In this document: positions 2,324 through 33,837 of the stretch, piece by piece
Position numbering within the stretch: position 1 is the first letter of the stretch
How the letters are laid out: each line of letters begins with the position of its first letter
Assembly: GCA_038065355.1 (NCBI GenBank)
Contig: JBBTRC010000010.1
Span: 157,844 to 221,843, forward strand
Source: Patescibacteria group bacterium
GTDB lineage: Bacteria; Patescibacteriota; Minisyncoccia; Phycocordibacterales; UBA918
Reading direction: 5' to 3'
DNA length: 64,000 nt
Program-made: the position numbers and the translations under genes
Notes under the pieces: model-generated
The model's input: the letters and a program-made list of their open reading frames with translations, nothing else
What the model was told of the DNA's origin: nothing
Database searches by the model: none

Positions 2324-2442
2324 AACGTAATTATACGGTGCCGCTTGGTAATTGTTTCATCACAAAAAGAAAACCCGTTCATTCCGGAATGAACGGGTTT
2401 TCTTTTTGTCATAAAAGTTTGGGGTGAGCGTATAATTACGTT
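2324..2442. promoter_or_regulatory. divergent promoter region with dyad architecture
   Basis: A 14 nt inverted repeat (aacgtaattatacg at 2327-2340 and cgtataattacgtt at 2425-2438) abuts both divergent start codons and places a TATAAT 8 nt from each ATG. A central GC hairpin, aaaacccgttcattccggaatgaacgggtttt, lies at 2369-2405. Confidence 0.55.
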
Positions 2443-3768
2443 ATGAGCATACACAATATTTTAGAGGAGCTACGACAAAAGTACTCCCACCAACCCACTT
2501 TTATACAAACTGCCACTGAGATTTTAGAAAGTATTGCACCGTATTTAGAGTCGCTCCCTGCGACTGAAGCCGACTACCGACTGGTGCGCCGGATGCTCAT
2601 TCCCGAACGAATTATTACCTTCCGAGTGGACTGGTTGAATGACCAAGGAGTGCTAGAGACCAACACCGGCTATCGCATCCAATACAACTCCGTCCTTGGG
2701 CCATACAAGGGTGGCTTGCGGTTTGATCCGTCAGTCACCGAAGACGTGCTCAAATTTTTGGGACTGGAGCAGATTTTCAAGAATGCCTTGACTGGCCTCC
2801 CGCTCGGTGGCGGTAAAGGCGGTAGTGATTTTAATCCGAAGGGCAAGAGTGACAACGAGATCCGCAGTTTTGCGCGGGCATTTATGATTGAACTCCATCG
2901 TCATATTGGCTTAGACCTCGATGTGCCGGCTGGCGACATTGGCGTCGGTGGTCGTGAGATCGGCTATCTGTTTGGCATGTACAAACAATTAGCACGAGGA
3001 AACGCCGGCGCACTGACCGGCAAGGACCCACTCATCGGCGGCTCACTTGGCCGTACCGAAGCGACCGGATATGGCATTGTGTATTTTGCTGAAGCGGTGG
3101 CAAAAGAGCACGCACTTGCGCTCTCTGGTATGAAGGTGGTGGTATCTGGCTCGGGCAATGTAGCAGAATTTACCGCCCGCAAGCTCATAGAGAAGGGCGC
3201 TGTTGTCCTCACACTCTCCGACCGTGGCGGCTATCTCTTCAAAGAGACCGGCTTCACCCCGGCTGACATCGACACGCTGGCACGTGAAAAGGATGCTGGA
3301 AAAGCACTCAAAGATATTGCCACTCCCGGCGCCACCTACCACGACGGTACGCCTTGGCAACACGTCGCGGCGGATGCATATTTCCCCTGTGCGACACAAA
3401 ATGAAGTGAGCAAAGCGGACGTCGAGGTGATGGTCAAATCGGCCAAGCTCATTGTCGAAGGCGCCAACATGCCACTCACGCTTGAGGCGCTCGCGCTCGT
3501 GCGTAAGGCAGGCATTCCGCTGGCGCCGAGCAAGGCGGCCAATGCTGGCGGGGTAAGTGTGTCTGGCCTTGAGATGGTGCAGAACGCGGAGCACCTGTCG
3601 TGGACATACGAGCAGGTGGACACTGAGCTACAAAAAATCATGCAACACATTCATTCGCTCTGTGTTGAGAACGGCCGAGCCGCCGACGGACACGTTGACT
3701 ACGTAAACGGCGCCAACATCGCTGGTTTCAAGCGCGTCTTTGAAGGTATGAAAAAATTGGGGTGGTAA
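2443..3768 (+). CDS. gdhA: NADP-specific glutamate dehydrogenase
   Basis: 441 aa with the Glu/Leu/Phe/Val dehydrogenase signature GGGKGGSDFNPKGKSDNE and typical GDH N- and C-domains. Confidence 0.9.
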   Translation: MSIHNILEELRQKYSHQPTFIQTATEILESIAPYLESLPATEADYRLVRRMLIPERIITFRVDWLNDQGVLETNTGYRIQYNSVLGPYKGGLRFDPSVTEDVLKFLGLEQIFKNALTGLPLGGGKGGSDFNPKGKSDNEIRSFARAFMIELHRHIGLDLDVPAGDIGVGGREIGYLFGMYKQLARGNAGALTGKDPLIGGSLGRTEATGYGIVYFAEAVAKEHALALSGMKVVVSGSGNVAEFTARKLIEKGAVVLTLSDRGGYLFKETGFTPADIDTLAREKDAGKALKDIATPGATYHDGTPWQHVAADAYFPCATQNEVSKADVEVMVKSAKLIVEGANMPLTLEALALVRKAGIPLAPSKAANAGGVSVSGLEMVQNAEHLSWTYEQVDTELQKIMQHIHSLCVENGRAADGHVDYVNGANIAGFKRVFEGMKKLGW

Positions 3769-4441: not shown

Positions 4442-4512
4442 GACGTATAGTAGCGGCGTTAATCCTCTCGGGAGGTTTATTTTTTAGTTTAGTTAACTTT
4501 TTATTATTTGTT

Positions 4513-6684
4513 ATGGCACGAGCATTTCCACTAGAACGACTCCGCAATTTCGGTATTGTCGCGCATGTTGACGCGGGCAAGACTACCACGTCTGAACGCG
4601 TGCTTTTCTACACCGGCGTGAGTCACAAAATCGGCGAAGTGCACGACGGCGCCACCGTGACCGACTGGATGGAGCAGGAACGCGAACGCGGCATCACCAT
4701 CACTGCCGCTGCCATTTCTTGTAACTGGTCAAAGACTAACGTGGCTGACCGAAAAGATACCTCGCAGATGTACTCTTTCAACATCATCGACACGCCCGGC
4801 CACATCGACTTTACCGCCGAAGTGAAGCGCTCAATGCGCGTCTTAGACGGCGCGGTGGTCGTATTTGACTCGGTCGCCGGCGTCGAACCGCAGTCGGAAA
4901 CCAACTGGGGTTATGCCGACGAAGCCGGTGTCCCGAGAATTTGCTTCATCAACAAAATGGATCGCATGGGCGCCGATTTTGAAAAATCGTACAAAAGCAT
5001 CCTTAACCGTCTTTCCAAGAAAGCGGTGCGCCTCCAGATCCCGTGGGGAAGTGAAGGCAACTTTAAAGGTGTCGTCGACCTCATGAAAATGAAAGCCTAC
5101 ACTTTTACCGGTGAGATGGGTATGACGGTCGTTGAACAGGAGATTCCAGCCGAACTTCTTGACGAGGCAAAGAAATATCGCGCCGAACTAGTCGAACGCG
5201 TGGTTGAACACGATGACGCACTCATGGAACGCTTTTTGGCTGGTGAAGAGCCAACTGTCGAAGAGCTCATGATGACGCTCCGCAAAGCAGTGATTGCCAA
5301 CCAAATTTTTCCCGTCCTCACTGGTTCGGCGCTCAAGAATGTCGGCGTACAGCTCGTGCTCGACGCAGTGGTTGATTACCTTCCCGCGCCAACCGACCTG
5401 CTACCGGTCAAAGGCATCAATCCTAAGGACGACTCGGAAGTCGAACGGAAGCCAGCTGACAGCGAACCCTTTGCGGCGCTCGCCTTCAAGCTCCAGACCG
5501 ACCCCTTCGTCGGCCAACTGACCTTCTTCCGTGTGTATTCTGGCACGGTGAAATCCGGAAGCTACATCTACAACTCTACTAATGGTGAGAAAGAGCGCCT
5601 CGGCCGCATCGTCCGCCTCATGGCTGACAAGCGAACCGAAATCGAAGAAGTGTTCGCGGGCGAAATCGCCGCCGGCGTCGGACTGAAAGACGTGAAAACC
5701 TCACACACCCTCTGTGATGAAGCCAAGCCGATTATTTTGGAACAGATCACCTTCCCGGAACCAGTTGTCGCGATGCGGGTTGAACCAAAGACAAAAAATG
5801 ACCAAGAAAAGATGGGTACCGCGCTCAAGAAACTGGCAGACGAAGATCCAACTTTCAAAGTTTCAACCGACGACGAGACCATGGAAACGATTATTGCTGG
5901 TATGGGCGAACTCCACCTTGAAATTCTTATCGACCGCATGAAGCGGGAGTTTGGTGTCGAAGCCAACGTCGGCGCGCCACAAGTGGCCTATCGCGAAACT
6001 ATCCAACGCGAAGCTGAAGCCGAATACAAATACATCAAACAGTCAGGCGGCCGCGGTCAGTATGGTCACGTGAAGATCAAGATCCGCCCGATGCAGCCGC
6101 TCGGTGAAGACGAAACAGTGAAGAAGAACGTCACTCGTGAAGACCACTTTGAATTCATCAACAACATCAAGGGTGGCGCGATTCCTGGTGAGTACATCCC
6201 AGCGGTTATGAAGGGCGCCAAAGAGGCGATGGGACGCGGATTTGTGGCGGGCTACAAGATGGAAGACATTTCGGTCGAACTCTTTGATGGTAGTTACCAC
6301 GATGTCGACTCGTCTGAAATCGCCTTTAAGCTGGCCTCTATTCACGCCTTTAAGGCGGCGGCGGCCAAAGCCGGCGCGGTCTTGCTCGAACCAATCATGA
6401 AGATTGAAGTGCGCACTCCGGAAGAGTTCATGGGTGACATCAACGGCAATATCTCCAGCAAGCGCGGCCACGTCGAGGGTATGGACGATATCGGCGACAA
6501 GAAGGTGATTACCGCCAAGGTGCCATTGTCGGAAATGTTTGGCTACACTAATACGCTCCGCTCGATGACGCAGGGTCGCGCGTCGATGATGATGGAATTC
6601 CACCACTACGATGTGGTACCAAATAACGTCGCAACAGAAATCAAGAAAGCCCGCGGAGTGAAAGATGTGGAAGAAGAAGCGTAA
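4513..6684 (+). CDS. fusA: translation elongation factor G
   Basis: 723 aa with the [10 protein letters not shown]1 motif, DTPGHIDF, and full EF-G domain order. It has a ~10 aa insertion before the DTPGH motif. Confidence 0.95.
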
Positions 6685-9495: not shown

Positions 9496-9536
9496 AGTGA
9501 GCAAACGAGCGCAAGCGACTATTGCGAACTTCCTCA

Positions 9537-9572
9537 GAAAATTGTTCACTCCTAGAACAATTTTTTGAGCAG
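9537..9572 (+). terminator. terminator after rpsJ
   Basis: aaaattgttc actccta gaacaattttttg: a 10 bp stem followed by a U-run. Confidence 0.6.
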
Positions 9573-9616
9573 AACCATTGCAGTCCAGGCTGTTGTTTAT
9601 CATTCCTAGGTTTGTT

Positions 9617-9657
9617 GCCAACACAAAAGCCGCGCCCCTTTGGGGCGCGGCTTTTCG
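9617..9657 (+). terminator. second terminator-like hairpin in the rpsJ-rplC gap
   Basis: aaaagccgcgcccc ttt ggggcgcggcttttcg: a perfect 14 bp stem. Confidence 0.65.
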
Positions 9658-9716
9658 TTATCCCCACAGACGCCTTGTTTTTCAGAAACTATGCCCCGAT
9701 AATACAGGGACAACAG

Positions 9717-9752
9717 GAGGCGACCCTAAAAGGGTCGCCCCTTTCTGTTGTA
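9717..9752 (+). terminator. third terminator-like hairpin
   Basis: ggcgaccct aaa agggtcgcc followed by cctttctgttg. Confidence 0.55.
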
Positions 9753-9835
9753 TTCCTGTAGTTATAGTTGGAAACATAAGCACAGGAGTGACGCGAGAAT
9801 AGTTCTTTTAGTTCTTTTTTAACAAAAAATATCTA

Positions 9836-9967
9836 TGGATAAACTTCCACCAGATAGTTTGACGTTTATGGGCGAAGACAGTTGGATGGTGCAATGTTTA
9901 AGTCTAGCGACCGTTGGTATGCTGGCCTACTTACAGATTGCACCCGCCGTAAGTCAAGTTCTATAAA
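9836..9967 (+). CDS. candidate small ORF, 43 aa, MDKLPPDSLTFMGEDSWMVQCLSLATVGMLAYLQIAPAVSQVL
   Basis: ATG to TAA with a terminator hairpin (aaagccgagc tcc gctcggcttttgtgttg, 9988-10022) 20 nt downstream. The C-terminus is hydrophobic. There is no SD, but this genome rarely uses SD. Confidence 0.25.
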
Positions 9968-10115
9968 ATTATGTAAACGTACAAACACCCCCAAAGCCGA
10001 GCTCCGCTCGGCTTTTGTGTTGTCTTGCTAATTTTTAATAAATCCGTATACTACCGGGAGCTTTTAAAGACCTATGTACCGAGGCGTTTTTAACGCTAGG
10101 GACCAATGGGCACAA

Positions 10116-10170
10116 ATCGCGCGGTTTTGGCGGCGAGCTTGTGCTCGCGCCAAAACCGCGCGATTTGTTG
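10116..10170 (+). promoter_or_regulatory. very stable ~25 bp hairpin 45 nt upstream of rplC; candidate attenuator or leader structure
   Basis: caaatcgcgcggttttggcggcgagc ttgt gctcgcgccaaaaccgcgcgatttg has one bulge and is followed by ttgttgt. Confidence 0.5.
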
Positions 10171-10211
10171 TAAGGGTCAAAAAGCCACATTTTATTATTT
10201 AATCCACACAC

Positions 10212-12769: not shown

Positions 12770-12773
12770 CACA

Positions 12774-12803
12774 AAAACACCCCCTTGCGGGGTGTTTTTG
12801 TGT
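12774..12803 (+). terminator. terminator after rplB
   Basis: aaaacacccc cttgc ggggtgtttttgtg. Confidence 0.75.
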
Positions 12804-12899
12804 GAGCACCTGACTTTCGTCAGGTGTGTACCGCGATCCGAGCCGGAGCGTTGTGAAGTGCGCAATTCCTAGCGCACAAAACAGCGGGAGAGGTTGCGA

Positions 12900-12943
12900 A
12901 CACAGCCAAAATCACGTACTTTCGTGCGTGATTTTGGCTGTGT
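12900..12943 (+). promoter_or_regulatory. 17 bp perfect hairpin upstream of the acidic protein gene
   Basis: acacagccaaaatcacg tactttcgtg cgtgattttggctgtgt. Confidence 0.5.
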
Positions 12944-12980
12944 TACACTACCTATATATCAGCATGTAATCGTTATCATC

Positions 12981-14168
12981 ATGAGTACTATTCGCTTCCA
13001 CGTCTATCTAATCACCTTTAGTTTTTTCACATTTGGTTTTTTCTTTGTTCCGACTTTTTCATTTGCGGCCAATGAATGCTCGTTCACCCGCCAGCTGGAA
13101 GTCGGTATTGACGGAGAGGACGTGCGCTGTCTTCAACGTTACCTAAATGCGACTGGGTTTGTCATCGCGGATAGCGGTCCCGGTTCGCCCAGCAACGAAA
13201 CCTCACTCTTCCGTGACAAGACTAAAGAGGCGGTGATTCGTTGGCAAATAGCCAAAAAAATAACTCCAGCGAGCGGTATCTTTGGACAAAAATCCCAAGC
13301 CGCCTATCTGATCGACCAAGTGGCCCTCTTGCGGCCGCCAGTCACCACTACTCCGGTTGTGGTGCAGGCACCGTCGCCAACTCCGCAGGTGGCCGGTATT
13401 TCAACTTCCCAGCCTTCAAAACTGCAGGCAGAATTGGAACAAGCCATCCTTGATGCGATAGACATATTTGAGGACGCCGAAAACGAGATAGAAGACGCGC
13501 GAGACGAAGGGAGGAGCACTGATGGATTCGAAGATGATCTCAACGATGCGCGCGACGAACTCTTTGCCGCCATCCGATCGTACTTTGACGAAGACTGGGA
13601 GGACGGGCTCGGCCAAGCGGATGACGCCTTTGACGCCGCCGAAGATGCCTTTTCCGATGCGGGTGGAGAAACGGAAGAAGACGACGCTGAAGAGCTTCTT
13701 GATGAGGTGAATGACGCACTCAAGGATGCCGAGGAAGAGATAGAGGACGCGAAAGATGATGATAAAGATACCGACGACGCTGAAGACTACCTCGACGACG
13801 CCGAAAACACCCTGAATGATGCAGAAGACGCCTTTGACGATGAAGACTACGACGAAGCGATTGATCTCGCAGAAGAAGCGGAAGACTTAATCGACGACGC
13901 GCTTGATGCAATTGGTGATAGTGACGACGAATCCGATGCGGAGGATGCGCTCGATGATGCGCAAAATGCGTACGACGACGCCAAGGATGAGATTGAAGAG
14001 GCGGAAGATGATGGCGACGACGTCGAGGACGCACTTGACCTCTTAGACGAAGCGAAAGACCTACTTGACGACGCGGAAGACGCCTTTGACGATGAAGACT
14101 ACGACGAAGTGCTTGATCTGGTCGAGGAAGCGGAAGACCTCATCGACGAAGCGCTCGACGAGATTTAG
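12981..14168 (+). CDS. secreted hyper-acidic repeat protein with an N-terminal peptidoglycan-binding (PG_binding_1-like) domain
   Basis: The start is taken at the internal Met (MSTIRFHVYLITFSFFTFGFFFVPTFSFA signal), because the upstream part of the ORF overlaps the hairpin. Residues ~35-110 (GEDVRCLQRYL...GIFGQKSQAAYL) resemble the PG-binding repeat. The C-terminal ~250 aa are roughly 60% D/E, with two ~84 aa tandem repeats (DAEDAFDDEDYDE[AV][IL]DL[AV]EEAEDLID[DE]ALD) also visible as ~100 bp DNA direct repeats at ~13820-13920 and ~14070-14165. Confidence 0.65.
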   Translation: MSTIRFHVYLITFSFFTFGFFFVPTFSFAANECSFTRQLEVGIDGEDVRCLQRYLNATGFVIADSGPGSPSNETSLFRDKTKEAVIRWQIAKKITPASGIFGQKSQAAYLIDQVALLRPPVTTTPVVVQAPSPTPQVAGISTSQPSKLQAELEQAILDAIDIFEDAENEIEDARDEGRSTDGFEDDLNDARDELFAAIRSYFDEDWEDGLGQADDAFDAAEDAFSDAGGETEEDDAEELLDEVNDALKDAEEEIEDAKDDDKDTDDAEDYLDDAENTLNDAEDAFDDEDYDEAIDLAEEAEDLIDDALDAIGDSDDESDAEDALDDAQNAYDDAKDEIEEAEDDGDDVEDALDLLDEAKDLLDDAEDAFDDEDYDEVLDLVEEAEDLIDEALDEI

Positions 14169-14175
14169 GAAATAA

Positions 14176-14212
14176 AAAAGCGGCGCGGCCTAGAGGCCGC
14201 GCCGCTTTTTGC
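14176..14212. terminator. bidirectional terminator
   Basis: aaaaagcggcgcggcc taga ggccgcgccgctttttgcg. Confidence 0.8.
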
Positions 14213-14240
14213 GTTGTATAAATTCGATACGCCTATTTTC

Positions 14241-14555
14241 TCACACTCCTGGCTTTCGCTCACGCTCCTTAAATACCCAGTCACGAAGTTGCTTGCTGGC
14301 TTTGAGCGCGGCAAAAACAGTGCGGGGATTGCTGTTTGTGTGTACGGCTACTCTCTGACTACTCTGGCCGCTCACTAGTAGCTCAAAGCCAGCTTTCGTA
14401 TGCACTGCCGTCACAAATCTTGTCCCGCTACCAGTGCGGTTTGGCCGGATTTCGCCCGGCGCGATCATTTTGATACCTGGAATTTTCTTAAGTTCTGCGA
14501 CCACAATAGCGGCTGTTTCTGTGAGAGAAGAATGTTCGCGACCGCGGGGCTTTGC
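14241..14555 (-). CDS. hypothetical small protein (~104 aa)
   Basis: Minus-strand ORF MAKPRGREHSS...; no family recognised. It sits between the acidic protein and the pentapeptide-repeat gene. Confidence 0.4.
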   Translation of the reverse strand, partial: AKPRGREHSSLTETAAIVVAELKKIPGIKMIAPGEIRPNRTGSGTRFVTAVHTKAGFELLVSGQSSQRVAVHTNSNPRTVFAALKASKQLRDWVFKERERKPGV

Positions 14556-14582
14556 CATATTTGAGAGCATAGCACAAAAGAA

Positions 14583-14612
14583 AGGCCGGACGCGCGTTGC
14601 GCGTCCGGCCTG
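14583..14612 (-). terminator. terminator after the pentapeptide-repeat gene
   Basis: ggccggacgcgc gttg cgcgtccggcc (11 bp stem) followed on the minus strand by tttcttttg. Confidence 0.7.
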
Positions 14613-14622
14613 GGACTAAAGA

Positions 14623-15198
14623 TCACGTCTGCATGCCCGGTCCAAGCGGACTCGATTTGTCGATCATAGCTTGGACATCTTCACGCGAAAGACCGAGCAT
14701 TCTTCTGGCTGTCGAAGTTGAGACGAAAATACCATTCTTGTGAAGCAGAAGTTGCTGAGCCAGAACTGGGTCAGAAGTAGTGACACTATTTCTGAACCAG
14801 GCGTAAACAAAAATCCATGACGCATTACCCATTACGTCACACAAATCCACGTGTCCTTTAAAGAGGGTACTTTCAAAGTCAGCAACCCCTCTGAAGGTAA
14901 CTTCGACGAAGGTCACTAGACCGGAGAATTCCGTGTTATGGAATGAGGCGTCACTTTTAAAAACAGCACCATCGAAGTGGGTAAATTCGTGGAATTGACT
15001 GCAAATAAAATTGGCACTCTTTTCAAAAATGGCTTCTCTAAAGGAGATATCTTCTGAAAATTCGTGATTGGTTACTCTAATGTCAGTGGTAAAGATAACC
15101 TTATTGAAGTTAGTTCGACCTTGCTTGAGTGCGAGAAAAAACTCCTCCTCAGTCATCTTTTCACACACAAGAGCTTCACCGCTCTCTTCGGTACCCAT
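14623..15198 (-). CDS. pentapeptide-repeat protein
   Basis: 191 aa. The central region is made of consecutive A(D/N/S)(L/F)xx pentapeptides (ANFICSQFHEFTHFDGAVFKSDASFHNTEFSGLVTFVEVTFRGVADFESTLFKGHVDL). Confidence 0.75.
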   Translation of the reverse strand: MGTEESGEALVCEKMTEEEFFLALKQGRTNFNKVIFTTDIRVTNHEFSEDISFREAIFEKSANFICSQFHEFTHFDGAVFKSDASFHNTEFSGLVTFVEVTFRGVADFESTLFKGHVDLCDVMGNASWIFVYAWFRNSVTTSDPVLAQQLLLHKNGIFVSTSTARRMLGLSREDVQAMIDKSSPLGPGMQT

Positions 15199-15262
15199 GT
15201 GGTTATTCCTTTCAAGGTACGGAGTTTAACTGCAACAATACAATCACTTTCTAGGATTTTGT

Positions 15263-15293
15263 CAAGCGGGCGGCACCCATTTTTTGGGTGCCG
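15263..15293. promoter_or_regulatory. perfect 11 bp hairpin in the intergenic region
   Basis: gggcggcaccc atttttt gggtgccgccc. Confidence 0.4.
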
Positions 15294-15477
15294 CCCACCT
15301 TCCAAATAGTTGACTTTATTTGCCATTTTAGGTACTCTTTCCCCGTTCCAACCTTTGTCGCACGTTGTTCACCAGCTCGTCTCGTGAACGACAAAATCAA
15401 CAAAATAATGGAATGGGAGTCCCTCTTAAGGCCGGCCGTTACCTGTCTTTACCAGGGATTCCCACTCGACCGCCACT

Positions 15478-15516
15478 GAAGCGGTAATTTTTGGTTTTTA
15501 CCAAAAATTACCGCTA
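15478..15516. promoter_or_regulatory. perfect 15 bp AT-rich hairpin upstream of rpsS
   Basis: gcggtaatttttggt tttt accaaaaattaccgc. Confidence 0.45.
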
Positions 15517-15663
15517 TACGCGGTATTACCAACTAAATGAAAAGGGTAGTGCTGAGTGAAATTCGCGAAGCTTAGGAATTTTTCGAGGGAGACGTAGTCC
15601 TTCTACGATGACCGAGAAAAATTCCGTAGCGACAAAGAATTTCGCCAGCAGTACCATTTGAAT

Positions 15664-19637: not shown

Positions 19638-20366
19638 TTAGAACTTGAGCTTCTCTAGGTCTTGGAGCAGGTTTTCGAAACTGACGACGACCGGCTGTCC
19701 AAGTGCATAGGCAATGAACTTTTGGTCAACGCCGAGTGCTTCGACTTCTGGACAGCCAGCCAACCTTCCGGCTAAAGCGGGAGGTTTGTCGCTTCCCGGG
19801 TCGGTATACCAGCTAATTAACTGCTTGTCCGCCTCCCGGCCAATTTGTCGGTGAAACACCAGCAAATTGTTCGTCACAGCTGTACGTTCGTCTGGTTCGA
19901 GTACTGAGCCGGCTCGACCAATAAGAAACAACCCTAAGTACTGTCGGCGCAGGTGGTCTTCGATAGTGCGTCCGTCAAATACTTTTTCGCCGAGGATTCG
20001 CACTCCTTCGGAGTCAGCAGTTTCTCGCAAGACGTTGTTTAAGTAGTCATCAAGATTAAAAACATTCGCTACCGTTTTCTGTGCTTGAGACGGCAGCGTC
20101 GCATAGGCCGCTTTAATTTCTTTGATCAACTTAATCAGGTTTGGCAAGTCGACAAATTCACCATGCGCTAATTTCCAGGCGGCGACTGTAAAACTGTTTT
20201 CTGAAAACCCGAATCGATCTTGCAGATGTTTAAGGTCAGTGCCGAGTTCAGTAAGTGTTTTCTTGAGATCAAGCTTATTCTTCATAAGACGCTCGACCAT
20301 AGACTGTAACGCTAAAGCGCCAACAAACATTGCACCGGCCCGTAACAGAGGATAGATCGCGATCAT
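19638..20366 (-). CDS. hypothetical protein with an N-terminal hydrophobic segment (last gene of the minus-strand block)
   Basis: 242 aa; no family recognised. Confidence 0.55.
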   Translation of the reverse strand: MIAIYPLLRAGAMFVGALALQSMVERLMKNKLDLKKTLTELGTDLKHLQDRFGFSENSFTVAAWKLAHGEFVDLPNLIKLIKEIKAAYATLPSQAQKTVANVFNLDDYLNNVLRETADSEGVRILGEKVFDGRTIEDHLRRQYLGLFLIGRAGSVLEPDERTAVTNNLLVFHRQIGREADKQLISWYTDPGSDKPPALAGRLAGCPEVEALGVDQKFIAYALGQPVVVSFENLLQDLEKLKF

Positions 20367-20502
20367 GCACGCTCCTTTGTAAAGATCACTTCCGTACCAG
20401 TAAACAAGTTTTTAGAATAAAAGCAAGTTTTGCACAATATAGAAAAACGGCTCGCCTGGTAGGCGAGCCGTGAGTTAAGAACAAAGTTGTTAAAACGAAA
20501 TA

Positions 20503-22158
20503 TCATTCCCAGGTGTTACCCAGTCTTGACTGTAGCTCAGTCGGCCAGGCTTTTGATTGCAAGGGATCTACCCAGACAACCACTCCAGTACGAGCGTCGG
20601 TGATAGCAATTTCTGGTGTAGCGCCAGTGATAAATTCCATCGCCCCGACCTCTGACTCGGTCTGTTTGACGGCTACGACGGTTGTCATCCAGAAAAGTCG
20701 CTCCGTCACTTCACCCTTTCGATTCGAAAATTTACGAATGAAGGGACGGTGTTCGACTGGTCGGAAGCGAGTCCAGTCGTAATTTTTCTTCGACTCTTCT
20801 ACTTTTGGTCCGACTGTACTTACGCCAATTAACTTCGTGCCCCGAGTCGAATGTTGGTATTGGTATATCAGCCTCGAACCGTCAGCCGGAATGAATAAAC
20901 TGGTCGCGAGACCTTGTTTCTCCGGATCAAATGGTTCAAGCGCAAAGTAAGCATAGAGAGCCCCTATTTTTTCACCAGGCATTTTGAAGTGCAAAGTGAA
21001 TGGTTGAGGGTTGACGTCGTCAGGCAAATTAGGAATGCGCACATCTCCACTATGCACGCCAGGGAGTGGTCCAGTGAAGCCTTCTTGGAAGCGAAAGCTT
21101 TCCGCAACGAAACGGGTTACCTGTGGTGCGACCAGATTTTGGCCGCGCAGAAAGGTGTGTTTCGAAACGTTGCGGGGAGAGACGTATTCCCCACACCCAA
21201 TTAATGGACGCAACAGTTCTGTCCAGTGGGGCCGCTTACCTTCTTGACGCACAATTTGGACACCACCAAACTCCGGTCGAGGAAAAAATAAACCGCTCCA
21301 TTTAATGAGTGAGACGACCTGTATCCATTCGCCGGTGTCATCCTGCATGTACAGAATGTTGCTGGGCTCATGGTTTAAAAATCGCCAAGGGCCAAACGAA
21401 CGCAGAGTGCACGAGTGAAGATTGTTGGAGAACAACATCTCTTCGCCAGTGCGAAACCGCACTCGGATTGGATTAGTTCGTGAGAAGTCAGGAGACGGCG
21501 ATGTAGCCGGTATACTCATGATTTCTCCGACGGATCCAGTCATACGGCCAACGAACCGTGCCGGCTGTACCGCTATTGTCCAGACGTCTCCGTGTTTGGT
21601 ATGTACCAAGTCAGGAACCGTCGGTCGTAATTGACTTTCGTCCATTCGTTCACGAATGAGTGAGTGTACGGCGTTAAGTGGCAGTACTCGCTCGTTCGCA
21701 GTTGTTGGAAGTAATCGCAGATCAACAATCTCAAGTGTTTGATACTGTTGAAAAGATGCAATGTACCGGTTGACTGGCTCTAGTCTTGCTAGTGCCACCG
21801 AAGTCAAAAGCAGACAAACGAATGTGGCAGTACCACGAACACGAATTGTCTGTTTCCGGGTCGTAAACCAAGTGATGCCGGTCAGCACCATCACGGTTAG
21901 GATGGCGCCGAAATAAATCCGAACGCCATGGATGAATGGTTGATATGCCCATCGTATATGCAGCAAGACAAGCGGCACTACGATGAGCATAGTCTTCGTC
22001 AGCCGTGGATGCTTCTTGAAAACCGATTTAATACTTACCAGTGTGTGGTGAATGAACCATCCCACCGGCGAGCGTTCCTTGCTTGCCTTTTTGGCGACAA
22101 CAGGAGCAATCGGTTTTTCAGTTTTACTCATGTCGATTTCCTCCAGTAAATCGCTCAA
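20503..22158 (-). CDS. hypothetical membrane protein: 3 N-terminal TM helices plus a ~400 aa extracytoplasmic domain
   Basis: 551 aa. It overlaps the upstream gene by 35 nt, indicating translational coupling. Confidence 0.6.
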   Translation of the reverse strand: MSDLLEEIDMSKTEKPIAPVVAKKASKERSPVGWFIHHTLVSIKSVFKKHPRLTKTMLIVVPLVLLHIRWAYQPFIHGVRIYFGAILTVMVLTGITWFTTRKQTIRVRGTATFVCLLLTSVALARLEPVNRYIASFQQYQTLEIVDLRLLPTTANERVLPLNAVHSLIRERMDESQLRPTVPDLVHTKHGDVWTIAVQPARFVGRMTGSVGEIMSIPATSPSPDFSRTNPIRVRFRTGEEMLFSNNLHSCTLRSFGPWRFLNHEPSNILYMQDDTGEWIQVVSLIKWSGLFFPRPEFGGVQIVRQEGKRPHWTELLRPLIGCGEYVSPRNVSKHTFLRGQNLVAPQVTRFVAESFRFQEGFTGPLPGVHSGDVRIPNLPDDVNPQPFTLHFKMPGEKIGALYAYFALEPFDPEKQGLATSLFIPADGSRLIYQYQHSTRGTKLIGVSTVGPKVEESKKNYDWTRFRPVEHRPFIRKFSNRKGEVTERLFWMTTVVAVKQTESEVGAMEFITGATPEIAITDARTGVVVWVDPLQSKAWPTELQSRLGNTWE

Positions 22159-22813
22159 GCACTGCTCGAGGATCTTTTTGCGGCTGTTCTGGTGCTGACT
22201 CCTCCGAAGTCGCCGACGGAGTAAGTGTCTCTAGCGGCTTGTTGACGACAGGTTCAGGGGGTGAGCTGGTAAGCGCTTCGCGAGCGTCACGCAACTTTTC
22301 CCCAACGGCGTCACCGATTTTTTCCGTAACGTCTTTGGCGACGGCACCGGCCGCATTAGCAGCTCCTCTCGCAACTTGACCAGCCATTTCGCCAGCTAGC
22401 TGCTTGAGGGTAATTTCCTTACTCTCGACTTTGTCGAGTCGAGTCGCAACCTTGTCGAGAAGGAAGTCACCGAGACGGATAAATGGCGTGACTAGATAGA
22501 ATCCAGCGACCATAAAACCCGCTTCAAGTGCCCACATGATTATCTCGACAGTGAAATCAACTTCTTCTGCCCGCCAAACTACGTACGCGCTCTGAACAAA
22601 CGAGATAATCGACGCAAACCATAGCTTGCGTCGAGCTGGTTGTCCCACAATAAAACCTCGTCGATCACTTAGTGGTAACGGGTCTTTGTGAGTCATTCGA
22701 TGCAGCCAGCGACGCGTAGGGACGCCAAATTTGGTGTCCGCCATTGCCCAAATAATTCCTAACAAAAGGAACATAATGAGCAAGCCAAGGGCCTTTGAGA
22801 AACTTATCTCCAT
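22124..22813 (-). CDS. hypothetical membrane protein: 3 TM helices plus a C-terminal amphipathic Ala/Gly/Lys-rich region
   Basis: 229 aa. It starts 3 nt after the upstream gene's stop. Confidence 0.6.
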   Translation of the reverse strand: MEISFSKALGLLIMFLLLGIIWAMADTKFGVPTRRWLHRMTHKDPLPLSDRRGFIVGQPARRKLWFASIISFVQSAYVVWRAEEVDFTVEIIMWALEAGFMVAGFYLVTPFIRLGDFLLDKVATRLDKVESKEITLKQLAGEMAGQVARGAANAAGAVAKDVTEKIGDAVGEKLRDAREALTSSPPEPVVNKPLETLTPSATSEESAPEQPQKDPRAVLERFTGGNRHE

Positions 22814-22815
22814 GT

Positions 22816-24084
22816 TTACTTCCTTTCGGTGTAGGTTTTATCTGAGTTGTAACCGACGATTTGCTTACGAGCGACTGCTCGCATTGGCTTACTCCAGGTT
22901 TGGTAGCGGTCAAGAAAAAGATTCTTATCAACCGCGTAGAGACGCATGACGTCAACTGGCCACGCTTGCACGTGACAAATTAATCGCCACACTAAGTTTT
23001 CTTCATGTCGGGTAGAAGTGTTCACTGGATGTAGCAAGCATGCTTGCACTTCCGATGAAACTGTCGGCAAAACTTGATCTTCGGTAATCTTGACAGCAAA
23101 TTCTTCGAGTTCAGCGTACACGTCCACGAATGGATGTTTACACCGACTCAAAGCACCTTTAGCATGTCCGTCGGTCATTGTGTCGACCGGTATTTCAGGG
23201 TCGACCGTTGACAAGATGAAGAGACCAAGTGTGGCTAGACGTTCTTGCAGAACGTGCGGGTGTGTTTGGTACCAACGCACGTCAATGTCGGCGACACCGC
23301 TTTCACGAATACGTGACACAACGTTTGGGTCGCGCACATGTGTTGTATAGGGTACCAATTCTGCACCGGCCTTATCTACCAACTTTTCGTTTTCAACAAC
23401 GATGAGTGCCCGCTGTCGTTGGTGCCTAAAGACGTAAACCCCTCCGAGCGCGGCGGTATAGAAGTCGTCGAACTCAGAAAATGTAAAGTCGTCGATCACC
23501 AGCTGGCGATCGTATAATTTTCCATTTTCGTTGAGGTCTTTTATTATCTTTTTTCGTAGTCCCGTGTCCATCCAAGCGTCTGTATCTTCACGCATGAATT
23601 CACCGACGAGTTGCTTTTGTTGAATTGCTTTATCAGCTAGTGTTCCAGCATGCGACACTATCTTAATAGTCCGAAGACTTTCGACGTGTGTCAGTTTCCG
23701 ATACCACGTGACACGTTGATCAATTTCAAGTGCAATGCCGGTTTCTGCTGTCAGGTTGGCAATTGCTTCCCGATTTTTCTCAAAGTATCGCTGCATCATC
23801 AATCGATCAAACGAGTGGGCCGGCATGTAAATTGGCTGGTTCTCTTGGTTGATAGTGACGATTATTCCGCGCGGATTTGCTAAACCGTGCGAAAGATAAT
23901 AGCGATTTTGAAACTCATCGGCAATTTCCGGCGACCAACCAATCCCATCGATGTGGAAATGGTCGAGCGTTGTCGGTGTTAAACCGAGCTGTTCCATGCA
24001 TACACGATATCGTTTGATTGTTTCTGGTCGGTCGATGAGAATGAGTCCACCGCCAACCAGCGCCGTTCTTGTAAGCTCCCTCAT
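22816..24084 (-). CDS. hypothetical soluble protein, 422 aa
   Basis: No recognisable motif. It is tightly linked to the downstream membrane-protein genes. Confidence 0.6.
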   Translation of the reverse strand: MRELTRTALVGGGLILIDRPETIKRYRVCMEQLGLTPTTLDHFHIDGIGWSPEIADEFQNRYYLSHGLANPRGIIVTINQENQPIYMPAHSFDRLMMQRYFEKNREAIANLTAETGIALEIDQRVTWYRKLTHVESLRTIKIVSHAGTLADKAIQQKQLVGEFMREDTDAWMDTGLRKKIIKDLNENGKLYDRQLVIDDFTFSEFDDFYTAALGGVYVFRHQRQRALIVVENEKLVDKAGAELVPYTTHVRDPNVVSRIRESGVADIDVRWYQTHPHVLQERLATLGLFILSTVDPEIPVDTMTDGHAKGALSRCKHPFVDVYAELEEFAVKITEDQVLPTVSSEVQACLLHPVNTSTRHEENLVWRLICHVQAWPVDVMRLYAVDKNLFLDRYQTWSKPMRAVARKQIVGYNSDKTYTERK

Positions 24085-24152
24085 TGTTCATCTCCGAGTT
24101 AAGGGGTTGTGGGTGGTAAGTCGGGTGGCCATTAGCCACCCGACTCAGATTT

Positions 24153-26108
24153 TCAGAGCTCAGTCTTTTCTTGCTTCAGTTCCGTATGCGCTTTTAACTG
24201 CACACGAATTCTTTTTTTCTCCGCCTCGACCTCTCGCCGAAACTGCTTTTCAGCAATGGTGGCAAAAGCGTCAAGGTAACGAGACGTCTCTTGCACCCAG
24301 ACGTCCTGCATCTTGAGGGTGCCCATGTTCTGGTGCATAAGGTCTTTAAGCATCGCACGTTTTTGCTCGTAGTCACGGCGGAAAAACACTTCTGGCTTTT
24401 CCATCCATTCGTCAGGCGGATCGAAATCCACCATTCGGGCTGACACAGCTGATTGAATGTTGCGAACTTCTCGGGACGAGAAGCCGTCAAATTCTTTCTG
24501 TACCGATGCCGCCAATACCGCGAAAAACTTAAACTCAGTCACGGCATGCTGTTTCAGAACTCGGTCAAAAATATCTCGCATTGTCGAATGCTTGGGAGCA
24601 TCGTAATGTTCGAGACTTTGTGACAGACTGACCAGCTCAGCTTGCAGCGACATGTATTCGTAGTCTGTTGGATCAGTCATGTTGGCAGTAAATTCTGGCA
24701 CAGCGTCCCGAAAATGCTTCCACCACAAGCGATCTTGGTCGAGGAAGTCTTCCCAGCGCCGCGCTCCGTTAATGGGAAAGCGAGCTTGGTGCCTTGAAAG
24801 TACGGCTGGATCAATCTGTTCCGGTAAGTTGGTGAAGGTCTCAATGACTGATGACCCCCGCTGTATATACACCGCACCAGCCCCTTCGGTGCCGGTTAAG
24901 AACTGGCTGATGACTTCACGAACGCCGGCCGATACCCCCTGCTGCATAGTTCGGTCTTGGAGTACTTGCTCGGCATCGTCAATCGCACCATACACGATCC
25001 GTTTTGGATCATTGAATTTTCTGAACCAGGCGTGCATCCGTTCGGCTGATCCACCTTGGTAGGTCGAGATGACCGTACCGCCAAGCGGATGATAGTCAAA
25101 AGGTATGCCAATCATGGTACAGATGTCATGGAACAAGGTAGCGGTCGCCGCAATTTGCAACGACTTACCAGTTCCGGGCACGCCGTGGCCGAGACGAACG
25201 TTTTGAAACGACCCAGTTAGTTCACGGAACGGATTCCGCTGCATAATCGGATCGTAACAACACACTCGAAACACCATCCGACGGGCTTCGTGTTTCGCTT
25301 CGCGGTTTCCGACGATGGTGTCGAATGAAGTGCGAGTAAACTCCACCTTCGCGCTTTCGTCCCGCGTTTCCGCGGTGAAGCCGTGAATAGTGAACTCACT
25401 GCCTTCTAGTTGGTATGAACGCTCGGTAAACGGTTCCGCAAACATGATCGTGCTCTGCACGCTCTTGATGTCTTCGAGAACTTTCTCAAAGTACACCCGC
25501 GTGAGTTTCACAAATGCTTCCGGAGTTTTTTCCGTTAATCGTTCGAGTGATTCAACGTAAAAGTAGATAAGCGAGCGGAGTGAACCAGCTCGGTTACTGT
25601 AGTCCAAACGAGGCATATCGAAATCAGGTACCGACACGCTGTTAACGGCGTCGGTGTGATACGTCGATAGTTCCCATAGGATGTAGTATGCTGCCACAAA
25701 ACGAGTGACATGCGCCATCGTCTGGTTTTTCTTGTAGAATTCTACGCGCTCAGCTTCGCTGCTGAACCCGCCACTTCTTGTCTGTTGATTGTTTAAGATC
25801 TCGAGACCGGAAGCGTTTTTGTAGAGTTCCGCGATGTGAGTCCCAAGTTCAACACCCTGCTTCACGATGTGGAGCGTGTGATTGACCTTGTCCGCTAGCA
25901 ATTTGGACTCAATCGGCCCGAATGTTCGGGCAACATCGAGTGCCTTTTTGGTAGCAGTAATGTCTCTGGTACTGCCGGCCGCGTAACCGCGGTCGGCAGT
26001 ACGATGCTGCACCACTTGATCAACATTTTCAAGTAGATCAAGGGCGGTGCGTCCGTATCGCTGCAGGTCACTACGGGTGACCTGCAGCGGCGCTTCGTTA
26101 GATTGCAT
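24153..26108 (-). CDS. AAA+ ATPase (classical AAA clade) with a ~300 aa N-terminal domain of unknown function
   Basis: Walker A GVPGTGKS, Walker-B-like IVYGAIDDAEQ, and a second region of homology (TNLPEQIDPAVLSRHQARF) that aligns to the FtsH/Vps4-type SRH. The start is taken as the ATG at 26108 (MQSNEAPLQ), which is preceded by GGAGGT and lies 5 nt after the upstream stop. The longer ORF-track start would overlap the upstream gene by 173 nt. Confidence 0.7.
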   Translation of the reverse strand: MQSNEAPLQVTRSDLQRYGRTALDLLENVDQVVQHRTADRGYAAGSTRDITATKKALDVARTFGPIESKLLADKVNHTLHIVKQGVELGTHIAELYKNASGLEILNNQQTRSGGFSSEAERVEFYKKNQTMAHVTRFVAAYYILWELSTYHTDAVNSVSVPDFDMPRLDYSNRAGSLRSLIYFYVESLERLTEKTPEAFVKLTRVYFEKVLEDIKSVQSTIMFAEPFTERSYQLEGSEFTIHGFTAETRDESAKVEFTRTSFDTIVGNREAKHEARRMVFRVCCYDPIMQRNPFRELTGSFQNVRLGHGVPGTGKSLQIAATATLFHDICTMIGIPFDYHPLGGTVISTYQGGSAERMHAWFRKFNDPKRIVYGAIDDAEQVLQDRTMQQGVSAGVREVISQFLTGTEGAGAVYIQRGSSVIETFTNLPEQIDPAVLSRHQARFPINGARRWEDFLDQDRLWWKHFRDAVPEFTANMTDPTDYEYMSLQAELVSLSQSLEHYDAPKHSTMRDIFDRVLKQHAVTEFKFFAVLAASVQKEFDGFSSREVRNIQSAVSARMVDFDPPDEWMEKPEVFFRRDYEQKRAMLKDLMHQNMGTLKMQDVWVQETSRYLDAFATIAEKQFRREVEAEKKRIRVQLKAHTELKQEKTEL

Positions 26109-27243
26109 TAACGTAACCTCCGTTGGTATAAGTGATCTTGCGATCAGGGGTTGAAAGAAGTGCTTGAACGCGTTCTCCTTTTTCAGAGTGAGCAATTTGT
26201 GCCAATCGATGAGGCAGTAGCATAAAGCCTTGGCTGTATGTTGCTCCTCGCTCGATGGCGCGCTCGTCATTGCTGGTAAGGTCGAAGAGCTCGTATCGTT
26301 GTTTTTTTCCTAGTAAGGGTATGCCTGGCCCCACGGTTTTTTTTGACTGAACTTCGTCAAAGGAAAACCGCAACACCACATCCCCATCTTCAGCGAGTTC
26401 GGAGAAGAAAAAGTTAGCCGCCAACTCTTCTGGAGTAGGTGACTCATTTAGTCGAATGAGACGCTTCGTGAACAAACGATCGAGCATAATCTTCGTTAAC
26501 CGTTTGGGGTGAATGTAGGGAAGCGACCGATCGATGTCGTGCGCCACCAGGCTCACCGAAGGTGTGCGATGGCCGACCCGACGTATCACTTGCAATAAAG
26601 CGGCGAACGCCGGGCCTTTTTCATGCATTGGGTCAATTGCCTCGTGTACATCTTGAGTAAACTCAAGGATGTACACTGCCGGGCAATGGTCGTTTGATGA
26701 GTAACACGACCACCAGAACGTATACCTGCGTTCGTGGTGTTTCTTATCGCGTGGTGCGACGTCGTGATGACGAAGCTCACCGTTCACGACTGGTAGAGTC
26801 ATGTAACGTTGATCCAAAAGATCAAGATAGCGTCGCTCGCCAATTCGCCACAGTAAATCGGAGTCGTCGCCGCCCGTTTTAAGCGCTTGGTCCAGCCAAA
26901 CTTGCTTGTGAATTCGCGAATCTACCAACTGACGTTGGTGTTCATCGCGACTGATTAGATCGATCATTGTTCCTTCAATCTCTGAATGGTTGGGAAATCC
27001 ATTTAACCCAATACTGAGTGCTTCACCGGTAAGTGAGGCGTGGGTAAACGCATACTTCAGGTGCAACGCTGCGCCCGTGTAGGCTAGTCGCGCTGCGGTG
27101 TTCTTAAGAGCATTTTCTATCATCGTTCGCTCCGGATGACCGGGGATCAAGAGATCCGCCAGCTTCGGAAGAAGCGTTGAAATTGTCGAAAATGTCTTAA
27201 AGTACTCGTTGTACGTCGATCCAGTGTCGGATACATCTGACAT
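26098..27243 (-). CDS. hypothetical protein, 381 aa
   Basis: No recognisable domain. It is immediately upstream of, and probably coupled to, the AAA+ gene. Confidence 0.55.
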   Translation of the reverse strand: MSDVSDTGSTYNEYFKTFSTISTLLPKLADLLIPGHPERTMIENALKNTAARLAYTGAALHLKYAFTHASLTGEALSIGLNGFPNHSEIEGTMIDLISRDEHQRQLVDSRIHKQVWLDQALKTGGDDSDLLWRIGERRYLDLLDQRYMTLPVVNGELRHHDVAPRDKKHHERRYTFWWSCYSSNDHCPAVYILEFTQDVHEAIDPMHEKGPAFAALLQVIRRVGHRTPSVSLVAHDIDRSLPYIHPKRLTKIMLDRLFTKRLIRLNESPTPEELAANFFFSELAEDGDVVLRFSFDEVQSKKTVGPGIPLLGKKQRYELFDLTSNDERAIERGATYSQGFMLLPHRLAQIAHSEKGERVQALLSTPDRKITYTNGGYVNAI

Positions 27244-27261
27244 GGTCGATCTCCTTTCGAA

Positions 27262-27300
27262 GTTGTTGCAAGCTCAAAAATGGGGGTCATCGCAATGCAA
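27262..27300 (-). terminator. terminator after the coiled-coil gene (minus strand)
   Basis: The minus strand reads gggggtcat cgcaatgca atgacccccattttt. Confidence 0.65.
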
Positions 27301-27322
27301 TGACCCCCAGGGTGGCCTCGAA

Positions 27323-29020: not shown

Positions 29021-29206
29021 GTGGCACGAAAATCATTGATTTTGCGTTCAGTGCGCAAACCAAAGTTTAAATCGCGTGTCGTCCGCCGTTGCAAGCTTTG
29101 CGCTCGCCGCCGCGGCTACATGCGTGACTTCGACATGTGCCGAATTTGCTTCCGCGAACTCGCACACGAAGGTCAGATACCAGGCGTAAAAAAATCATCA
29201 TGGTAG
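29021..29206 (+). CDS. rpsZ: 30S ribosomal protein S14 type Z (Zn-ribbon short form)
   Basis: 61 aa with a GTG start and the CxxC...CxxC motif ([40 protein letters not shown]). A hairpin (taggtgat acggtttc atcaccta) lies at 28987-29012 just upstream. Confidence 0.92.
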
Positions 29207-33111: not shown

Positions 33112-33837
33112 TTAAATACGTAGGGGATTGAAGTCTGTACCAATATCATAAGTGTCGATCCCTTCTCTTTCTTTGACAGCTTTTATAACTTTTCTTGTCA
33201 CTGGCAAAGCGGCAACTTCCCACAAAGTACAGAAAGTTACTGTAGAGACAATGAGCGGTACAAGTTCCGAAGGAGCAAACCAACCAGCAAAGTAGAAAGC
33301 GGTAAAGAAAGCGATAGTGTTGTCAACAAGTTGCCCAAACAATGTCGACACAACTAAACGTACATTCAAAAGTTTTTCTTTCGTTATTAGTTTCATTTTT
33401 GCCACAATATACGAGTTTGTCAGTTCACCACAGAAAAAAGCGACAATAAAACCAATCGCTACAATCGGTGACGCTCTAAAAATGGCGTTATATGCATCAT
33501 TCATTTCGAACGATGGATTAGGTACGATGCTGTATAGAAACGCTAAGCTAGACGCCAAAAACATACACGCAAACCCTGTCCAGACGATTTTTCTTGTCAC
33601 TCGATAACCATAGACTTCAGTAAAAATGTCGGCAAAAATATAGACAAATGGATAGGCAATCGCTCCCACTGAAAATACCCAGGTTCCAATATAAAATGTT
33701 TTAAGAGATGTAAACACTCCAACAATCAGTACTGTTACCCAAAGCATGGCAAATACGAGCAAGTACTTATGAGGAAGCACCGCCGTTTCTGCCGGATTCG
33801 TGATTAAGTTGTTTTTCATACGCGACGATACTAGCAA
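33112..33837 (-). CDS. queuosine-precursor (VUT/YhhQ, DUF165) family transporter
   Basis: 241 aa polytopic protein with YhhQ-like motifs (AYPFVYIFADIFTEVYGY). AT-rich relative to the flanks. The start is possibly the internal Met at 33819. Confidence 0.65.
   Translation of the reverse strand: MLVSSRMKNNLITNPAETAVLPHKYLLVFAMLWVTVLIVGVFTSLKTFYIGTWVFSVGAIAYPFVYIFADIFTEVYGYRVTRKIVWTGFACMFLASSLAFLYSIVPNPSFEMNDAYNAIFRASPIVAIGFIVAFFCGELTNSYIVAKMKLITKEKLLNVRLVVSTLFGQLVDNTIAFFTAFYFAGWFAPSELVPLIVSTVTFCTLWEVAALPVTRKVIKAVKEREGIDTYDIGTDFNPLRI

Follow-up and report, generated by a model that had tools for sequence, protein, structure and literature searches.

In the 64,000-nucleotide stretch of DNA analysed here (hereafter the window), which spans positions 157,844 to 221,843 of contig JBBTRC010000010.1 from a Patescibacteria group bacterium (GCA_038065355.1), many protein-coding genes are preceded at a short and nearly fixed distance by a hexamer of the form TANNNT, which resembles the -10 element of bacterial promoters. 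This spacing pattern is real and well above chance. We interpret the hexamers, at a rough probability of 0.78, as sigma-70-type promoters, often of the extended -10 type, that abut the start codons in about half of the transcription units and would thereby give rise to leaderless or near-leaderless mRNAs. The observations at hand are the position of the hexamers, their enrichment, promoter-like features and conservation, the lack of Shine-Dalgarno (SD) motifs, and the compactness of the spacers between divergent genes.

A preliminary description of the window had named nine genes with a -10-like hexamer 5-9 nt upstream of the ATG and no SD motif, and had taken them as a sign of pervasive leaderless mRNAs. 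All nine (eight given with coordinates, and fusA) indeed show a TANNNT hexamer near the ATG. With the gap defined as the number of nucleotides between the end of the hexamer and the ATG, two of the spacings need correction: gdhA and the divergent oxidoreductase-DedA gene both have a gap of 6 nt, rather than the 8 and 7 nt originally given. The other spacings stand, namely 7 nt for xfp, 8 nt for the response regulator gene at 54039, 8 nt for EamA, 7 nt for the secreted protein, 6 nt for mazE, 9 nt for ftsH and 5 nt for fusA. The same layout is seen in at least 12 further genes of the window: cmk (ATG 35362, minus strand), adk (35423), the genes starting at 33819 (minus strand), 33903, 38556 and 43649, the SET-domain gene (44637, minus strand), a second response regulator gene (49932, minus strand), Fic (56354, minus strand), a YhbP-like gene (56896, minus strand), smpB (62651, minus strand) and rpsS (15664).

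Gene calls based on the 5'-most start gave a noisy profile and were dropped in favour of a gene-call-independent test and of curated starts. In the former, every TANNNT on both strands of the window was scored for its distance to a downstream ATG opening an open reading frame (ORF) of at least 100 aa. Gaps of 6, 7 and 8 nt yielded 9, 10 and 11 matches versus about four per position elsewhere (Poisson p = 1.4e-5), and a stricter TATAAT-like motif yielded 3, 4, 4 and 2 matches at gaps 6-9 versus a background of 0.6. No peak was seen with seven composition-matched control hexamers. The peak at gaps 6-8 recurs in 1.36 Mb of related fusA-neighbourhood loci from 80 species of the candidate phyla radiation (CPR), being most pronounced in the closest groups and weakening with distance. 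The strict motif occurs there 15, 3 and 0 times at gaps 6, 7 and 8 against a background of 1.3, and 12, 14 and 8 times against a background of 1.9.

Starts were curated by means of profile alignments and agree with independent public gene calls. With these starts, TANNNT is present 5-9 nt before the start in 21 of 42 first-in-operon genes, as against 6.7 +/- 2.3 in shuffled upstream regions (maximum 15 in 5000 shuffles), and other 5-nt windows of the same upstream regions contain 3-10 matches. The motif is distributed unevenly with respect to gene order, being found before 17 of 23 divergently transcribed genes versus 4 of 27 operon-internal genes (Fisher p = 3.6e-5). All that the internal genes have in common is a diffuse context that is rich in A and poor in G, with T at -1. 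In the syntenic region of E. coli K-12, which has these ribosomal protein operons as well as fusA and tuf in common with the window, the profile is flat and the motif occurs in 2 of 65 genes. A plasmid of Deinococcus radiodurans MP1, from a lineage in which leaderless transcripts are known to abound, served as positive control; with the few genes that it carries, its peak at gaps 6-7 is small.

These results bear on the possibility that the pattern arises by chance or from the boundaries of ORFs, either because intergenic DNA is AT-rich or because in-frame TAA and TAG stops generate TANNNT close to the first ATG. Crude 5'-most starts do show a period-3 pattern (gaps 0, 3, 6 and 9) before internal genes that results from in-frame stops, and the background of TANNNT is high in AT-rich relatives. 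Nevertheless, chance is rejected by the gene-call-independent test, the composition-matched hexamers, the shuffles, the E. coli region and the internal-gene control, and exact hexamers are kept across species (see below), which is not expected of chance matches. We therefore regard this explanation as highly improbable. The individual elements, with the gap to the respective ATG, are as follows.

2330-2335, minus strand: -10 TATAAT, gap 6, before the FAD-oxidoreductase/DedA-VTT fusion gene (242-2323, ATG 2323); start aligned 1 to 1 with the profile.
2431-2436, plus strand: -10 TATAAT, gap 6, before gdhA (2443-3768, ATG 2443); start matches the profile 1 to 1.
2321-2445, no strand: mirror-symmetric divergent promoter region, from repeat search and folding.
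4446-4512, plus strand: 5' region of fusA, with TATAGT at 4446-4451, a hairpin, an AU-rich stretch, and TATTAT at 4502-4507 with gap 5.
33828-33833, minus strand: -10 TAGTAT preceded by TGc, gap 8, before the queuosine precursor transporter gene, ATG 33819.
33890-33895, plus strand: -10-like TAAAGT, a weak hexamer, gap 7, before ATG 33903 (268-aa protein).
35371-35376, minus strand: -10 TATTCT preceded by TGg, gap 8, before cmk, ATG 35362; profile start at an internal ATG.
38542-38547, plus strand: -10 TAGTAT preceded by TGc, gap 8, before ATG 38556.
43631-43639, plus strand: extended -10 TGgTACAAT, gap 9, before ATG 43649 (193-aa protein), with an implied leader of about 2-3 nt; kept in the relatives L111-L115.
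44645-44650, minus strand: -10 TATACT preceded by TGt, gap 7, before the SET-domain gene, ATG 44637; invariant in L111-L115.
44700-44708, plus strand: extended -10 TGtTAGAAT, gap 7, before xfp, ATG 44716; from the sequence and from relatives.
49941-49946, minus strand: -10 TATCAT, gap 8, before a response regulator gene, ATG 49932; profile start, predicted promoter TCGAAA-17-TATCAT.
53982-53987, minus strand: -10 TACAAT preceded by TGg, gap 10, before ATG 53971, with an implied leader of about 3-4 nt; same start in the public call.
54025-54030, plus strand: -10 TATGAT, gap 8, before a response regulator gene, ATG 54039.
56362-56367, minus strand: -10 TACACT with TTGACA 17 nt before it, gap 7, before Fic, ATG 56354; 10 of 12 matches in the promoter scanner, start from profile and public call.
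56903-56908, minus strand: extended -10 TGcTATACT, gap 6, before the YhbP-like gene, ATG 56896; found by the promoter scanner.
57084-57089, plus strand: -10 TATAAT, gap 8, before EamA, ATG 57098.
58115-58120, plus strand: -10 TATGAT, gap 7, before the gene for a secreted protein, ATG 58128; found by the promoter scanner.
59455-59460, plus strand: -10 TATACT with TTTACA 17 nt before it, gap 6, before mazE, ATG 59467; found by the promoter scanner.
62660-62670, minus strand: promoter of smpB (ATG 62651), either TACTTT with gap 8 or TGcTATAGT with gap 13 (6-7 nt leader).
62702-62707, plus strand: -10 TATAAT, gap 9, before ftsH, ATG 62717; found by the promoter scanner.

Several features of these hexamers are those of promoters. 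The dinucleotide of the extended -10 element (TGn) precedes 30% of the hexamers situated 6-8 nt from an ATG, a five-fold excess over the 5.8% of all TANNNT in the window (p = 2.6e-5), and in the relatives the corresponding values are 19% versus 6% (p = 7e-8 and 7e-20). A consensus promoter scanner reported 24 full -35/-10 sites between 49 and 64 kb, six of which terminate 6-9 nt upstream of a curated start (Fic, mazE, ftsH, the YhbP-like gene, the gene at 58128 and the response regulator gene at 49932), where a rough chance expectation is below 0.1. The candidate starts behind the hexamers are all ATG. In the case of cmk (35362), the response regulator gene at 49932 and Fic (56354), the start placed by homology is an internal ATG with a -10 box 7-8 nt upstream, and not the 5'-most start; as these starts were placed by homology, they provide support that is independent of any motif-guided choice of starts. 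In six divergent gene pairs the two start codons are separated by just 60-83 bp, a distance barely sufficient for two core promoters placed back to back, with no space left for 5' untranslated regions (UTRs).

The divergent loci also permit a comparison with related genomes. The oxidoreductase/DedA-VTT gene and gdhA are separated by a 119-bp spacer (2324-2442), in which both are preceded by an identical cgTATAATtacgttATG; in full-length profile alignments the N-termini of both proteins fall at the ATGs 2323 and 2443. A repeat search identified outer 17-nt arms (2321-2337 and 2429-2445) that contain both start codons and both -10 boxes, as well as inner 31-nt arms (2355-2385 and 2386-2416), and the folding energy of the spacer is -51.5 kcal/mol (z = -8.3). 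In two metagenomic relatives of gdhA (L084 and L085; 75-78% protein identity) the divergent gene pair is kept, with a -10 element at exactly 6 nt on both sides (TATAAT for the oxidoreductase and TAGAAT for gdhA), whereas the discriminator has changed, as has the remainder of the spacer. As a separate observation, the centre of the spacer is occupied by a perfect palindrome (2355-2416, core 2363-2408), composed of an A-run, a 17-bp stem and a T-run, that resembles a bidirectional terminator and that together with the outer arms renders the spacer nearly mirror-symmetric. It is present as a single copy in the window, arguing that it is not a dispersed repeat. The orthologous spacers in L084 and L085 have no such palindrome, which gives it the appearance of an insertion; it may act as an operator or an insulator, or be a relic.

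A second case is provided by the SET/xfp pair, which is kept in five relatives of xfp (L111-L115; 76-86% identity, carrying the labels Kaiserbacteria, Nomurabacteria and Pacebacteria) with an annotated spacer of 68-79 bp. An alignment of these spacers contains only two invariant blocks, and the sequence between them is not conserved. The first, situated 7 nt from the start of SET, reads AGTATA and is complementary to TATACT; the second is TGnTAGAAT, 6-8 nt before a conserved ATGAG at the beginning of xfp. The next gene upstream, which codes for the 193-aa protein, has TG(G/C)TACAAT at 8-11 nt in all six genomes, and TGGTACAAT is kept in the five relatives. In the complete Nomurabacteria genome CP060228.1 (L114, 1501-1512) the public start of xfp falls within the conserved TGcTAGAAT. 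The alignment with five orthologues indicates the ATG three codons downstream as the probable true start, and the annotated start appears to have been misplaced by an annotation pipeline. A comparable situation is seen in the secreted-protein gene of the window, where the public start lies 12 nt before 58128 with its ATG inside the hexamer, and the start at 58128 is less certain.

It might be argued instead that the hexamers are real but represent minor or internal promoters, with the main transcription starts further upstream or the true start codons further downstream, so that most mRNAs would have ordinary 5' UTRs. Such a layout is present at fusA, with its upstream TATAGT and hairpin leader, -10 boxes lie at 13-33 nt from the start in smpB and in the genes at 50810 and 6797, and in more distant relatives of gdhA (L087-L092) a -10-like box is found about 20-26 nt upstream. 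Against this, the N-termini indicated by profile alignments coincide with the ATG that follows the hexamer, and the xfp homologues are equal in length; furthermore, upstream promoters would find no space in the compact divergent regions, where only the proximal hexamers are conserved. For the compact divergent pairs dominant upstream promoters are thus unlikely on sequence grounds, and for the hexamers as a whole we consider this explanation to have about one chance in nine or ten.

Several observations weigh against start-abutting promoters and leaderless mRNAs, or restrict their extent. The motif is missing before about half of the first genes, some members of the set are weak hexamers (TACCCT, TACCAT, TACTTT and TAAAGT), and certain curated starts, such as that at 58128, were picked partly by the hexamer itself. 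Matches to a -35 element are only weakly enriched; a weak -35 is usual in extended -10 promoters. Gaps of 8-11 nt imply leaders of 1-4 nt and not strict leaderlessness, and additional promoters upstream may give leadered isoforms of some transcripts. A minus-strand island at 19.6-28.7 kb accounts for five of the window's eight SD-like motifs, which lie there at canonical spacing. Finally, fusA has a better -10 (TATAGT, 4446-4451) upstream of its proximal hexamer, followed by a GC hairpin (4464-4475) and a T-run that extends to 4486. Apart from these, -10 boxes at 10-17 nt, implying leaders of 3-11 nt, are present at 53971, smpB and 50810. In sum, the claim that transcription and translation starts nearly coincide in many genes is supported by the sequence tests, but "pervasive" has to be reduced to about half of the transcription units.

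The fusA gene is the weakest of the set, and its original listing as a leaderless case is doubtful; the gene probably has a structured leader instead of a leaderless promoter. The order of a -10 element, a small GC hairpin, a U-run, 15-27 AU-rich nucleotides and the ATG recurs about 80 nt upstream of fusA in L008-L019, in which no conserved -10 is seen at 5-9 nt. The stem of the hairpin differs among relatives (e.g. CGCC/GGCG versus GCGC/GCGC). RNAalifold detected no consensus in the fusA upstream regions, the alignment of which was poor, and the hairpin was judged by eye. The element may be a conserved attenuator or an intercistronic terminator. In two of the relatives (L008 and L039) it is located directly after the rpsG stop codon.

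The absence of SD motifs reported in the preliminary description holds. An SD core (GGAG, GAGG or AGGA within -20..-3) precedes 8 of 68 genes of the window and none of its 21 ribosomal protein genes, compared with 47 of 65 genes in the matching region of E. coli. Among tblastn-anchored starts of ribosomal proteins, EF-Tu, EF-G and SecY in the 80 CPR loci, it is found before 1/110, 1/76, 1/69 and 14/173, that is 17 of 428, which indicates that the near-absence of SD motifs is a property of the lineage and not just of this window. The lack of SD motifs at ribosomal protein genes had also been cited in favour of leaderless mRNAs; it is observed, but it provides no argument for them as such, because these genes are operon-internal or leadered and the SD is absent lineage-wide. 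Start codons in the window are ATG in 67 of 68 genes; 62 of the 68 have a pyrimidine at -1, and none has G there. A similar context surrounds 163 anchored ribosomal protein starts of the relatives (L004-L060): ATG accounts for 98% of the starts and T for 65% of the bases at -1, G is depleted between -13 and -1, and the share of A at -11..-5 is near 50%. This A-rich, G-poor context with a pyrimidine at -1 may constitute a Kozak-like signal for SD-less initiation. Internal genes of the window begin at a median of about 4 nt after the preceding stop codon or overlap it, a distance that fits termination-reinitiation. Long upstream regions are encountered in tuf, rplC, rpsE, rplT and rpsN, with AU-rich, SD-less sequence before the ATG and no proximal -10, so that leadered SD-independent initiation must exist as well.

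Such a context raises the question of whether the hexamers themselves might be a translational signal on leadered mRNAs, i.e. a non-SD ribosome-binding or "Kozak-like" motif of the kind seen in Bacteroidota (GeneMarkS-2 group B), rather than promoters. The lineage clearly uses SD-independent initiation, the A-rich, G-poor stretch from -13 to -1 and the pyrimidine at -1 are common to all genes, and leadered genes without SD exist (e.g. tuf and rplC). However, a translational signal is expected before internal genes too, and the motif is concentrated before divergent first genes in the proportions given above. In addition, the TGn enrichment and the -35 partners are features of promoters, and spacers of 60-83 bp are too small to accommodate two promoters along with two leaders. 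This explanation consequently strikes us as improbable, slightly more so than that of minor or internal promoters.

The picture that best accommodates these observations is one of leaderless and near-leaderless first cistrons, for which we infer from the DNA alone where transcription starts and how ribosomes are recruited. A sigma-70-type RNA polymerase would read a TANNNT -10 element, often with TGn and a weak -35, 6-9 bp before the ATG, and transcription would start at the A of the ATG or 1-4 nt earlier. The ribosome would then initiate on the 5'-terminal AUG in the absence of SD pairing, and downstream cistrons would most likely be translated by termination-reinitiation. The remaining first genes, including tuf, rplC, rpsE and fusA, would be served by AU-rich, G-poor leaders devoid of an SD.

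The identity of the organism is indicated by its nearest protein relatives. A protein identical to its EF-G (encoded at 4513-6684) is found on the 95-kb contig CAYHNJ010000004.1 of GCA_964357995.1 and in Hainich groundwater (H41) assemblies, and the nearest EF-G relatives in a collection of species-level genomes are metagenome-assembled genomes labelled Kaiserbacteria, Paceibacterota, Nomurabacteria and "Patescibacteria group"; relatives of the phosphoketolase (xfp) give the same taxonomic picture. Judging by these two proteins, the organism is a Kaiserbacteria-like member of the Parcubacteria/Paceibacteria within the CPR. A large share of bacterial diversity falls within the CPR, hardly any of whose members have been cultured and whose ribosomes are unusually reduced. 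A tmRNA (61432-61827, minus strand) is the sole Rfam match at the gathering threshold in the window, and ARAGORN likewise found only this tmRNA; what Rfam added at an E-value threshold were weak matches below the gathering cut-off, several of which overlap terminator-like hairpins. Neither a 16S gene nor the conserved 16S 3' region was found in the window or in any of the gathered relative loci, and rRNA is absent from a further 8.6 kb of the same contig outside the window. The rplA gene and its neighbourhood lie outside the window.

Leaderless transcription is well known from Actinobacteria, Deinococcus and archaea, and what is described here extends a known principle to a new lineage. In the GeneMarkS-2 classification, group C genomes have a Pribnow box (TANNNT) 6-8 nt before the starts of first genes and not before internal genes, in 25-50% of operons (PMC6028130). 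Group C mainly comprises Actinobacteria and Deinococcus-Thermus (PMC6028130; MetaGeneMark-2 preprint), with examples such as Mycobacterium tuberculosis, Streptomyces, Corynebacterium and Deinococcus deserti. The window resembles this group in the -10 peak at 6-8 nt of first genes (about 50% having the motif at 5-9 nt), in its rarity before internal genes and in AUG as the first codon. It differs in that group C employs the SD for other genes, while here the SD core is rare throughout, and in that group C genomes with code 11 are nearly all GC-rich, while the GC content of the window is about 50% and its lineage is that of the CPR. The lineage thus appears to combine group C promoters with an SD independence like that of group B.

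The likeness to group B (Bacteroidota) lies in the near-complete lack of SD use even at ribosomal protein genes, the strong preference for ATG and the A-rich, G-poor upstream sequence. In group B, however, a single non-SD motif precedes first and internal genes alike and the mRNAs are leadered (PMC6028130), whereas here a motif of promoter type is confined to first genes. Archaeal leaderless genomes (group D; e.g. Haloferax and Sulfolobus) similarly have many operons without a 5' UTR and serve their internal genes by other means, but the archaeal promoter box is located about 26 nt upstream (PMC6028130), in contrast to the bacterial -10 at 6-9 nt with TGn found here.

A further parallel comes from the ribosome. 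Tsurumaki et al. 2022 (PMC9297842; RNA 28:1041) reported that the anti-SD is undetectable in about half of Parcubacteria, and suggested that SD helices do not form in them. The subgroup without the anti-SD is in the same taxonomic neighbourhood as the organism of the window, and the lack of SD motifs observed here is the mRNA-side counterpart of that loss. Their study analysed rRNA and ribosomal proteins (the subgroup lacks both the anti-SD and uL1), not promoters or mRNA 5' ends. In full-text searches of the literature on CPR, Patescibacteria, Parcubacteria and Saccharibacteria we found no report of leaderless transcription, the only related item being this work on the anti-SD.

Some further loci of the window deserve mention in their own right. 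The island on the minus strand (19638-28693, about 9 kb) has seven genes, namely one for a DUF6638 protein, one for an AAA ATPase and five without family matches, and it splits the ribosomal protein cluster between rplE (which ends at 19264) and rpsN/rpsH (from about 29023). Its codon-usage scores are below those of the neighbouring genes; PADLOC gave no match for its proteins, and Pfam only DUF6638 and the AAA domain. The island may have been acquired horizontally. The S10-type ribosomal protein cluster is also fragmented elsewhere: a 716-nt stretch (9496-10211) with no convincing ORF and no Rfam match parts rpsJ from rplC, and three unrelated genes (12770-15663) for peptidoglycan-binding/DUF4398, 109-aa and pentapeptide-repeat proteins are situated between rplB and rpsS. 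Rfam revealed no known leader or riboswitch that explains the long gaps of the cluster. A short Zn-ribbon-type rpsN (S14; 29023-29205), which is missed by ORF-length filters, has a GTG start and a stop that overlaps the rpsH start (ATGGTAG), with a 329-nt non-coding region containing promoter-like sites upstream of it. The sole in-frame canonical start of infC (IF-3; 41801-42472, minus strand) is TTG, and the family profile begins at residue 13, so the real start may be an unusual codon further in; unusual infC start codons are known in other bacteria. The gene at 38931-40295 encodes a beta-CASP/metallo-beta-lactamase ribonuclease, the best NCBIfam match of which is "type VII CRISPR-associated Cas14" (387 bits, cut-off 800), with an additional match to archaeal aCPSF1; rather than a CRISPR protein, the product is probably a housekeeping enzyme of the RNase J/CPSF kind.

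A broader proposal, which we advance tentatively and rate at slightly less than even odds, is that a large part of the CPR, at least the sampled Paceibacteria/Parcubacteria, initiates translation without any SD pairing: leaderless or near-leaderless first cistrons would be driven by extended -10 promoters abutting the AUG, downstream cistrons would depend on reinitiation, and the leadered remainder would be recognized through an A-rich, G-poor context, U at -1 and near-exclusive use of AUG. If true, this would be a distinct bacterial initiation regime that matches, on the side of the mRNA, the reported loss of the anti-SD and the reduced ribosomes, and the anti-SD loss in Parcubacteria would gain a functional explanation. 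Gene callers that weigh the SD would then misplace starts in CPR genomes, the xfp gene of the Nomurabacteria genome L114 being a probable example and the gene at 58128 a candidate. Gene starts would reveal the promoters directly and so give access to regulation in organisms that are not amenable to culture, and the expression of CPR genes elsewhere, or of foreign genes in the few cultured CPR strains, would need SD-free designs.

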